Shown here: piece by piece, positions 9,701-12,700 of the stretch
Numbering within the stretch: the stretch's first letter is position 1
How the letters are laid out: every line of letters begins with the position of its first letter
Source: Squalus acanthias
Lineage: Eukaryota
DNA: 64,000 nt
Reading direction: 5' to 3'
NCBI GenBank assembly: GCA_030390025.1
Contig: CM059447.1
Coordinates: 19,158,001 to 19,222,000, forward strand
The notes under the pieces: model-generated
Told to the model about the DNA's origin: nothing
Database searches by the model: none
Seen by the model: only the letters and a program-made list of their open reading frames with translations
Position numbers and translations under genes: made by a program

Positions 9701-12700
9701 TGCTTGGGCAATGTCAACAAGCTTTATGTTCCCAAGAAATGCTGTTAAATACATACCAATTTTCAGGAACTTCCCACAAGAATCTCTTGTCACAATCTAC
9801 AACTGTTGCCAGTCCCTTGGCAGGGAGCAGTCCCATCACTCTCCCATCACTGGGGTCACGACCTGAAAATTCCATTCCCAACAGGCAGTGCTGCAGAGCT
9901 GCATCACCTAGGAAACAAGACAAAAATTGACAGTGCAGACAGAAATGAAACACGATTCTGGATATTTGATGGAAAGTGTGCATGAGGAAGAAGCCCAGAA
10001 AAACTGAACTGTACTGACAACTTAGCAAGAGTATTTGTTTTGGGAACTGTAACCCTGCACTGCTCTCCCAGGCTTAGGTCCAATCGTCAGTAGCATACTG
10101 AAAACCAGACCCTATGGGGGCAATGTTAACCTAACCCGCCCATCGGGAGACTGAAGGGATCGGGTGTAATGCTGATTTTACACCCCGCCCCATTTTACTG
10201 GGTCAGCCGTGGCTCAGTGGGTAGCACCCTCGCCTCTGAGTCAGAAGGTTGTGGGTTCAAGTCCCACTCCAGAGTCTGGAGCACAAAAATCCAGGCTGAC
10301 ACTCCAGTGCAGTGCTGAGGGAGTGCTGCACTGTCGGAGGTGCCATATTTCGGATGAGACATTAAACCGAGGCCCCGTCTACTCTCTCAGGTGGACGTAA
10401 AAGATCGCATGGCATAGCAGGAGAGGTATCCCCGGTGTCCTGGCCAATATTTATCCCTCAAATCAACATCACTAAGACAGATTATCCGGTCATTATCACA
10501 TTGCTGTTTGTGGGAGCTTGCTGTGCGCTAATTGGCTGCCACGTTTCCCACATTACAACAGTGATTACACTTCAAAAAGTATTTCATTGGCTGTAAAGCG
10601 CTTTGGGATGTCTGGTGGTTGTGAAAGGCGCCATATAAATGCAAGTCTTTCTTTTTCTCCATTGAAGTCACTATAGAGTAATGTTGGGCGGGGTGTAAAA
10701 CTGGCGTTCCACCTGATCCCATGGGTTTCCTGATGGCAGGGTTAGGTTAAAATTACCCCCATGTCTCATTCATCTCAACAGGAAGCAGAGTTCCATCCAC
10801 AAACAGCTCTATGGCATTGCTCCATTTCTTTTCTTGAAATGCACAGCCATTTGGTGCAAACACAGGGCATTACATTTCCCAGTGAAATGCTCTTAAATAG
10901 TATAGTGTGAATTACAGAGAATATCCAGCACAGAAACAGGCCATTCAGCCCAACCAGTCCATGCCGGATGGTTTTGGTAATGGTGACAGCAGGGTAGCTC
11001 AGGCAGGTCGTGGGAGTATTCCAAAGAGAACCACCCCCTGTAATCAAATCCGTCAAAAGTAAATCCTGCAGAATGACAAGAGTAGTAGGTTTATCTGACC
11101 CAAGAAGCACTTACATTTATTGTGGAAAAGTATTTACATCGACTCCCCCTCACCCCGTTATTTTGAGCATTATATTCTCTACCACAGAATCTCATTCCGT
11201 CAGTCTACCTCCATTCAGAACTTTTTTTTGGGGGGGGGGGGATGTTAAAGTGCAAGGAGACACAACAATGCAATCATTTTAAAGTCTACAGAGCTACATT
11301 AGAATCAGAAGGCCTTACCAGGGATGGCATCGGGTGGCAGTTTGCCAGTTGCCAGCATGATATCACGGAAGTTGAGAGATGCATAATACACCTTGCATAG
11401 CTGAATATTAGGATCGCTGGAATGGAAGTGTTGCAGCGGCGATAAAATCCAGCGGAGAGATGAGAGGTCTCCACGAGTCAGCACATTCACGTAGGCAAAC
11501 TCTGTCAGTTCCTTATTTTGGTCTGCAAGGACAAAACCCCTTTTTACACAGTTTCTGATTTAATTTGAAAGCATGAGCAGTGCAGAAAGGCTGGGGCATG
11601 TTACTTGAGTAACTTGACATATTGTTCATGAGGTAAACAGTCTTTAGTGAAAAGGAAATTAAATGTTATTTCCCCGCCCCCCCCCCCCCCCCACACCACC
11701 CCCTCATCTCTTTCCCTAGCTGCTCACCATTCCTACAGTCAGTAAGTCTAGTTAGGGACTTGCTTCTGGGCCACTGTAACTGCAGCTGATCCAAGACTGG
11801 ATATCAGACAAGCAGTCTAACAACACAGATGTGAGAAGTTGCACAACACCAGGTTATAGTCCAACAGGTTTATTTGAAATCTCAAGCTTTCGGAGCGCTG
11901 CTCCTTCGTCAGGTGAAGTGAAGAGATACATATAGGCACAGCATATATAGTCAGAGAACACAGCCAGATGATTACAGTTAATCTTTCCAATAGCCCTTTA
12001 TCACACCTCGGCAGAGAGATAATCTTTGATTGCCGTGATTATCTCTCTGCCGAGGTGTGATAAAGGGCAGTTGGAAAGATTAACTGTAATCATCTGGCTG
12101 TGTTCTCTGACTATATATGCTGTGCCTATATGTATCTCTTCACTTCACCTGACGAAGGAGCAGCGCTCCGAAAGCTTGTGATTTCAAATAAACCTGTTGG
12201 ACTATAACCTGGTGTTGTGCGACTTCTCACATTTGTCCACCCCAGTCCAACACCGGCATCTCCACATCATAACAACACAGAGGCAGTGGAGGGGTCAAGA
12301 GAGGCGGAGGACAGGTAGAGATGGATGTGGTCAGCATACATGTGGAAGCTGACCTCACGTCTGTGGATGATGTTGCCAAGGGCTAGCATGTAGTTGAGGA
12401 GGGGACCAAGGACAGATCCTTGGGGGGGGACGACGACTCTGAAGTCAACAGTGCAGAGGCGGGAAGAGAAGCCATTGCTGGAGATGCTCTGGCTACGATC
12501 AGATAGGCAGGCGTGGAACCAAGCGAGAGCAATCCCACTGAGCTGGACAACGGAGGAAAGGCGATGGAGGAGGATGGTATGGTCGACTGTGTCAAAGGCT
12601 ATAGAGGTTATGGAGGACAATGTGGGATAATGCACTACGGTTACAGTTACAGAGGATGTCCTTTGTGACTTTGATTAGAACAGTTTGAGTGCTGTGGCAG

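Follow-up and report, generated by a model that had tools for sequence, protein, structure and literature searches.

The 440-bp insert at positions 11830-12269 of the window (the whole 64,000-nt stretch of Squalus acanthias contig CM059447.1 that was analysed) matches the known terminal layout of Penelope-like elements (PLEs), with a tailed, 5'-truncated pseudo-LTR (pLTR) joined to an inverted copy that lacks the tail. The insert lies in a FASN intron between two perfect copies of a 12-bp target-site duplication (TSD). It is probably a one-off integration product, laid down by a single retrotransposition event of an endonuclease-bearing (EN+) PLE at this site and now inert. The layout is already known as typical for PLE insertions from PMC8557442, PMC3846280 and PMC4209133, and the locus is a fresh instance of it. 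The initial annotation had described a recent, single, Penelope-derived insertion that was either an extreme truncation/inversion product or a member of a retrozyme-like foldback family. Its Penelope origin is supported by the pLTR/tail/TSD layout and by a hammerhead found with a descriptor; homology plays no part in this identification. Truncation with inversion is likely as well, although it is not extreme, the layout being typical of PLE insertions. A single insertion is supported, whereas "recent" holds only in a relative sense, since the arms differ at four of 196 positions. The features are as follows.

11523..13711, minus strand: host FASN intron, 2,189 nt, GT..AG, frame continuous between the flanking exons
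11752..12674, minus strand: older decayed LINE RT fragment, split by the element (reading frames, Pfam)
11818..11829, no strand: left TSD, 12 bp, its final 5 nt able to pair with element RNA 12232-12236
11830..12024, minus strand: left arm, an inverted, tail-less, 5'-truncated pLTR copy (self-alignment)
11869..11874, minus strand: left-arm AATAAA on the FASN-sense strand, mirror of 12187-12192
11880..11916, minus (FASN-sense) strand: left minimal type I hammerhead with an A-A mismatch at 11882 that disrupts helix I (descriptor with one mismatch, fold)
12025..12036, no strand: loop, 12 nt unpaired, head-to-head junction of two truncated 5' ends (arm pairing and fold)
12037..12231, plus strand: right arm, a direct 5'-truncated pLTR copy (self-alignment)
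12112..12145, plus strand: TATA-like TATATAT (12112-12118) and initiator-like TCACTT (12140-12145), 21 nt apart, mirrored at 11949-11916 (motif match)
12145..12181, plus strand: right minimal type I hammerhead, intact by sequence, predicted cut after U12177 (own descriptor, fold)
12187..12192, plus strand: right-arm AATAAA (motif match)
12232..12269, plus strand: PLE "tail", 37-38 nt, in the right copy only (arm alignment, folding)
12270..12281, no strand: right TSD, 12 bp (direct repeat)

The host gene was recognized as a vertebrate-type FASN from its minus-strand Pfam domains (KAsynt_C_assoc, PKS_DH_N, Methyltransf_12 and ADH_zinc_N_2) and from FASN chains; a search with its exons returned nine relatives at 47-58% identity. 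The placement within a FASN intron proposed earlier is sound, as exons flank the insertion, the intron (13711-11523) has GT..AG borders and the frame is continuous. The 3' splice site lies 295 nt from the beginning of the element. The older reading frame that the unit was said to split was also recovered. The RT frame at 12267-12674 matched Pfam RVT_1 with an E value of 5.8e-05 and 23.3 bits, below the cut-off of 29.6; it ends at the right TSD and picks up in frame beyond the left TSD. By its resemblance, the split frame may be L2. A LINE copy spanning the insertion site, usable as an empty-site reference, was not found in the 64-kb window.

The TSD, TAACAACACAGA, stands at 11818-11829 and 12270-12281 with 100% identity, and the 12-mer has exactly these two copies on either strand of the whole window. 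Exact 12-mer pairs at a spacing of 380-520 nt number two in the 64 kb, the TSD pair being one. The perfect duplication bounding the unit was therefore annotated correctly, and arm alignment reproduced the two arms of about 196 bp with about four mismatches, the 12-nt loop and the tail of about 37 nt. Position i pairs with position 24061-i from the loop outward to 11829/12232, giving 196 bp, in which the outermost pair borrows the final base of the TSD. The right-only extension at 12233-12269 measures 37 nt, or 38 nt if the shared base is counted as TSD. The mismatches, at 11840, 11882, 11991 and 11992, correspond to three separate changes, with CpG decay among these. The minus-strand insert folds into the predicted rod of about 196 bp at -381.8 kcal/mol (z -47 against 100 shuffles), and no stop-to-stop frame within it exceeds 73 aa, in agreement with the earlier statement that there is no ORF.

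Two of the arm differences can be polarised, the CpG decay at 11840/12221 and the helix-I break at 11882/12179, and both fall in the left arm; no polarity can be assigned to the adjacent pair 11991-11992. Two changes in one arm would fit two different RNA templates, a number too small for significance.

Long palindromes are known to provoke assembly errors, as noted for PLEs in PMC8557442. However, it is extremely improbable that a foldback assembly artefact or a read chimera produced this one. The TSD had already been invoked against an artefact, and this argument is joined by the in-frame host LINE on both sides, the one-sided tail and the four arm mismatches with their CpG decay. Equally, a palindrome with a TSD might be a DNA-transposon-derived MITE or a miRNA-like hairpin in which the hammerhead match is incidental, and TIR-bearing repeats do lie nearby. 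A scan of the insert against Rfam gave no hammerhead family and 17 miRNA-hairpin matches, all below threshold. The best of these scored 126.8 bits against a threshold of 249 for a miRNA precursor, and scores so far below the gathering thresholds reflect the hairpin only. The ends, moreover, are asymmetric, with a 37-nt right tail that has no match on the left instead of symmetric TIRs, and the hammerhead satisfies a strict descriptor with a null expectation of 0.04 per window. A MITE or miRNA origin is accordingly rated highly improbable.

This descriptor encodes the minimal type I motif as published, in the order 4-bp helix I, core, optional unpaired base, helix II, GAAA, short insert, UH and helix I. 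In its strict form, the sole match in 128 kb (both strands) was 12145-12181 on the plus strand; the null mean comes from 100 simulated windows. Allowing one helix-I mismatch added the left mirror copy alone (null mean 0.17 per 64 kb). The bare CTGANGA..GAAA pattern, by comparison, gave eight matches against 4.5 expected, which is not significant on its own. Scanning with hammerhead models, which the initial annotation had suggested, thus had a divided outcome, negative with Rfam and positive with the descriptor. The right hammerhead consists of a 4-bp helix I, CUGACGA, an unpaired A, a 5-bp helix II closed by G-C and a GAAA-GC-UU core. The cores occupy 12149-12173 (plus) and 11888-11912 (minus), and about 240 bp separate the two hammerheads, which lie on opposite strands. 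The description of a hammerhead followed by AATAAA in each arm holds for the right arm and for both AATAAA motifs; the left hammerhead is present with the A-A mismatch in helix I. The palindromic stem III invoked from known PLEs is not seen here, there being no intramolecular helix III, just the GC palindrome of the minimal core. The folding energies of the isolated hammerheads are unremarkable (z -1.0 to +1.0).

Three features beyond the descriptor are given in PMC4209133 (a base between positions 9 and 10.1, G10.1-C11.1 and a palindromic 15.2-16.2), and the right hammerhead shows all of them. It also shares with the PLE pLTR hammerheads of that paper the core boxes, the unpaired base before helix II and the 4-bp helix I. 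It differs from them in its position 17, which is U, and in that one copy has a broken helix I; helix II has 5 bp here versus 7-8 bp in Schistosoma. Dual minimal hammerheads about 100-700 bp apart on opposite strands were described in Schistosoma in 2014 (PMC4209133), and the arrangement here is the same. Minimal motifs of this kind were reported to show no cleavage as monomers and weak cleavage as dimers (PMC4209133). In PMC11167929, the Anolis motif required the protein of the element and was dispensable for insertion in vitro.

The remainder of the anatomy matches EN+ PLE insertions (Penelope/Poseidon, Neptune; Pen2a_Av) as described in PMC8557442 and PMC3846280. Craig et al. (PMC8557442) reported that 5' truncation is frequent, that the 5' end carries a truncated copy in inverse orientation and that a tail of 30-40 bp is often found at one end only. 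Arkhipova et al. (PMC3846280) described inverted pLTRs of about 180-220 bp, TSDs of 8-10 bp and a 31-bp tail on one inverted pLTR; head-to-head was the most frequent arrangement and was interpreted as self-priming. The insert has the inverted, 5'-truncated pseudo-LTRs in head-to-head order, a one-sided tail in the 30-40-bp range, the minimal type I hammerhead and a TSD of the variable-length kind, which at 12 bp is similar in size to the 8-10 bp of PMC3846280. The TATA and TCACT pair and the insertion into another non-LTR element are likewise shared with the insertions in PMC3846280. Unlike these, the insert retains no ORF, and without an RT no clade can be called.

Searches for relatives were made with the insert and with its frames. 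A second copy was not found by blastn against the 64-kb window. Three protein searches with arm frames for an autonomous partner or pLTR homology gave nothing relevant, a weak blank in collections that hold few or no vertebrate repeats. Among these frames, neither 12182-12301 against longer proteins nor 12129-12266 (minus) against proteins of similar length gave a candidate. Two exact-pattern scans of a bacterial/archaeal genome collection gave 0 matches, and the right copy had no blastn match among phages and plasmids; both blanks are weak for a vertebrate repeat. The junction-spanning frame 12004-12144 (minus), compared with 1.84 billion representatives, gave one match, to an unrelated repeat protein at 31% identity, which was dismissed as chance. 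The host genome may be rich in repeats of this family.

How the inverted pLTRs and the one-sided tail of PLEs form was described as still undefined in PMC8557442. As a single locus, the insert illustrates cleanly and compactly an arrangement that has been published before, and carries little weight alone. Here, both junctions, the TSD and an inferable empty site are intact, which makes the locus a readable footprint of that step. Frangieh et al. (PMC11167929) reported nicking and extension of both target strands by a Poseidon protein, two RT start sites flanking the tail in an AC-rich stem-loop, and a start region located 85-92 nt beyond the ribozyme cut. In the shark insert, the predicted cut and the tail end are 92 nt apart. 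The end of the right copy corresponds to the outer start site and that of the left copy to the inner one. As in Poseidon_Ac of the green anole (PMC11167929), the hammerhead precedes an AC-rich segment, the two ends of which match the two insertion ends, and the distance from the cut site to the outer end is similar. The tail here has A or C at 26 of 37 positions. It can pair back with 12209-12217 into a weak stem-loop, which is not significant (z -1.5; 16 of 200 shuffles fold equally well), and the inner, tail-less end would fall within the loop of this predicted hairpin.

From these positions, a course of events can be proposed. The TSD implies that the element protein would have made staggered nicks 12 nt apart in the old LINE fragment. 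From the bottom-strand end, cDNA synthesis would then have begun at the outer RT start site (12269, the tail end) and halted after about 245 nt, producing the 5' truncation. The truncated cDNA end may have folded back with a 12-nt loop, or may have joined a second cDNA, to give the head-to-head junction. Judging from the junction sequence, the top-strand target end would have paired over 5 nt with the inner start site (12232-12236), and from there it would have primed the inverted copy. Priming at the inner site, which is the tail boundary, would leave the inverted copy without a tail.

The last step draws on the left junction, where the last five target bases pair with 12232-12236 through four Watson-Crick pairs and one G-U. 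This pairing hints that the second target strand may prime the inverted copy at the inner site. Of the 127,990 5-mers in the window, 1,097 (0.9%) pair as well and 2.6% reach four of five Watson-Crick pairs, and the criterion is post hoc for a single locus. In vitro initiation by PAc was reported as non-homologous to the cut DNA (PMC11167929), in contrast to the 5-nt target pairing at the inner end here, and this counts against the pairing model. The junction nevertheless suggests a possible rule, that the second target strand would prime the inverted copy through a few-base pairing at the inner RT start site. In L1 twin-priming inversions, microhomology lets the second target strand prime an inverted segment, which is a non-overlapping one from upstream. 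Second-strand microhomology priming would be common to both cases, whereas here the same 3' segment is present twice.

The inner junction calls for a separate explanation, because cDNAs truncated independently would seldom end as close as 12 nt to one another. A model with two cDNAs alone would therefore have to invoke a common stop or some folding back. Self-priming of the truncated cDNA by fold-back fits the inner junction best, and it is also the reading given for palindromic junctions in PMC3846280.

The same 440-bp palindrome with a locus-specific junction could be what is left of a longer insertion (inverted pLTR, pLTR, ORF, pLTR with tail) that lost its middle by recombination between direct pLTRs; the ends and the TSD would look identical. 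An inverted pLTR abutting a direct pLTR is found in Pen2a_Av, and solo pLTRs were noted in the same paper (PMC3846280). The right copy with its tail measures 245 nt, a pLTR size (181-218 bp in PMC3846280). Such a remnant is nonetheless considered unlikely: the additional step is needless, as direct short 5'-truncated insertions are common, with a median of 128 bp for de novo Chlamys PLE insertions (PMC9977147).

The other option that had been raised, a non-autonomous family of head-to-head foldback units copied whole by a PLE protein in a retrozyme-like manner, is doubtful. In its favour, the 12-nt loop is nearly symmetric, a regularity beyond that expected of random truncation; non-autonomous derivatives of PLEs are known (PMC8557442; bioRxiv 10.64898/2026.07.22.740005), and pLTRs are able to mobilise enclosed sequence in trans (PMC3846280). 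On the other hand, there are 0 other copies in the 64-kb window (a weak point), and the candidate promoters are directed away from the centre, which would make the unit dependent on host read-through. The read-through RNA would bury the ribozyme and the inner RT start region, and no circle can be excised with hammerheads on opposite strands. Animal non-LTR retrozymes (PMC7229834; bioRxiv 10.64898/2026.07.22.740005) are, like the insert, short, non-coding and pLTR-derived with a type I hammerhead. As defined in these two sources, they are same-strand tandem repeats that release circles. At least two hammerheads on one strand in head-to-tail tandem would be expected of them, whereas the two copies in the insert are inverted and each strand carries a single sense ribozyme. 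The retrozyme-like option fares poorly for this reason, and also because no transcription route with an accessible ribozyme is evident. A foldback family of head-to-head PLE units was not found in searches of the open-access literature. There is only a slim chance that the palindrome is itself a mobile unit whose loop junction recurs, with ribozymes silenced in read-through RNA and freed in transcripts from the outward pLTR promoters. If true, this would leave perfect dsRNA rods of about 200 bp scattered through introns, and recurrence of the junction would make such units a new class of non-autonomous derivatives of PLEs.

For the one-off integration product, the present effect on FASN expression was considered by modelling. 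Helix II had a probability of 0.00 in all eight modelled transcripts that contain both arms. In plus-strand transcripts without the complementary hammerhead, it reached 0.95-1.0 (8/8); in the corresponding minus-strand transcripts (n = 8), helix II ranged between 0.05 and 0.98 and helix I did not exceed 0.03. Co-folding of two copies gave no active dimer, as pairing of loop II prevailed. On either strand, the sense ribozyme sits in the second-made arm, and its complement is therefore already present. The sense hammerhead of the FASN pre-mRNA or read-through RNA is thus computed to be locked in the 196-bp rod, and this strand carries only the damaged left hammerhead. No cleavage of the FASN transcript is expected, because the ribozyme would be buried and because each RNA has one sense ribozyme, without a partner for a cis-dimer. 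In these models, neither cleavage of the transcript nor use of the buried AATAAA is likely. An intronic duplex of 196 bp could plausibly serve as a substrate for editing or small RNAs. Any effect is more likely to come about through such intronic dsRNA or through weak outward transcription from a pLTR promoter. Selective inactivation of the FASN-strand ribozyme was also considered and dropped, the damage being a single substitution in a ribozyme that the rod already blocks.

The TATA-like and TCACT motifs, directly before the ribozyme, may represent such an outward-facing pLTR promoter. In the rotifer Pen2a pLTR, a TATA box lies 20 bp from a TCACT initiator (PMC3846280). The same TATA-like/TCACT pattern occurs at four further positions in the 64-kb window. 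A sigma-70 promoter scan was set aside as irrelevant to a vertebrate host.

Several other repeats were observed in the window. Two copies (95-97% identical) of a MITE-like repeat of 600-730 bp with short terminal inverted repeats lie at 4050-4655 and 37189-37917. The latter holds a nested imperfect foldback at 37562-37759 (24-nt and 42-nt arms around a CT run), which the former largely lacks. The next FASN intron contains, at 10114-10762, an element with 86-nt terminal inverted repeats (79%). A repeat within it (about 10203-10655) recurs at about 29171-29596, 53588-53860, 54865-55039 and 56896-57231. LINE RT-like 3' fragments, which may be CR1-like by their resemblance, are found at 26856-27387, 51570-52254, 57376-58064, 50899-51483 and 60103-60681; two of these are 97% identical, in opposite orientation and 30 kb apart. 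A further LINE-like family is present in FASN introns as three copies with 88-90% identity (3164-3717, 30161-30930 and 48536-49327).
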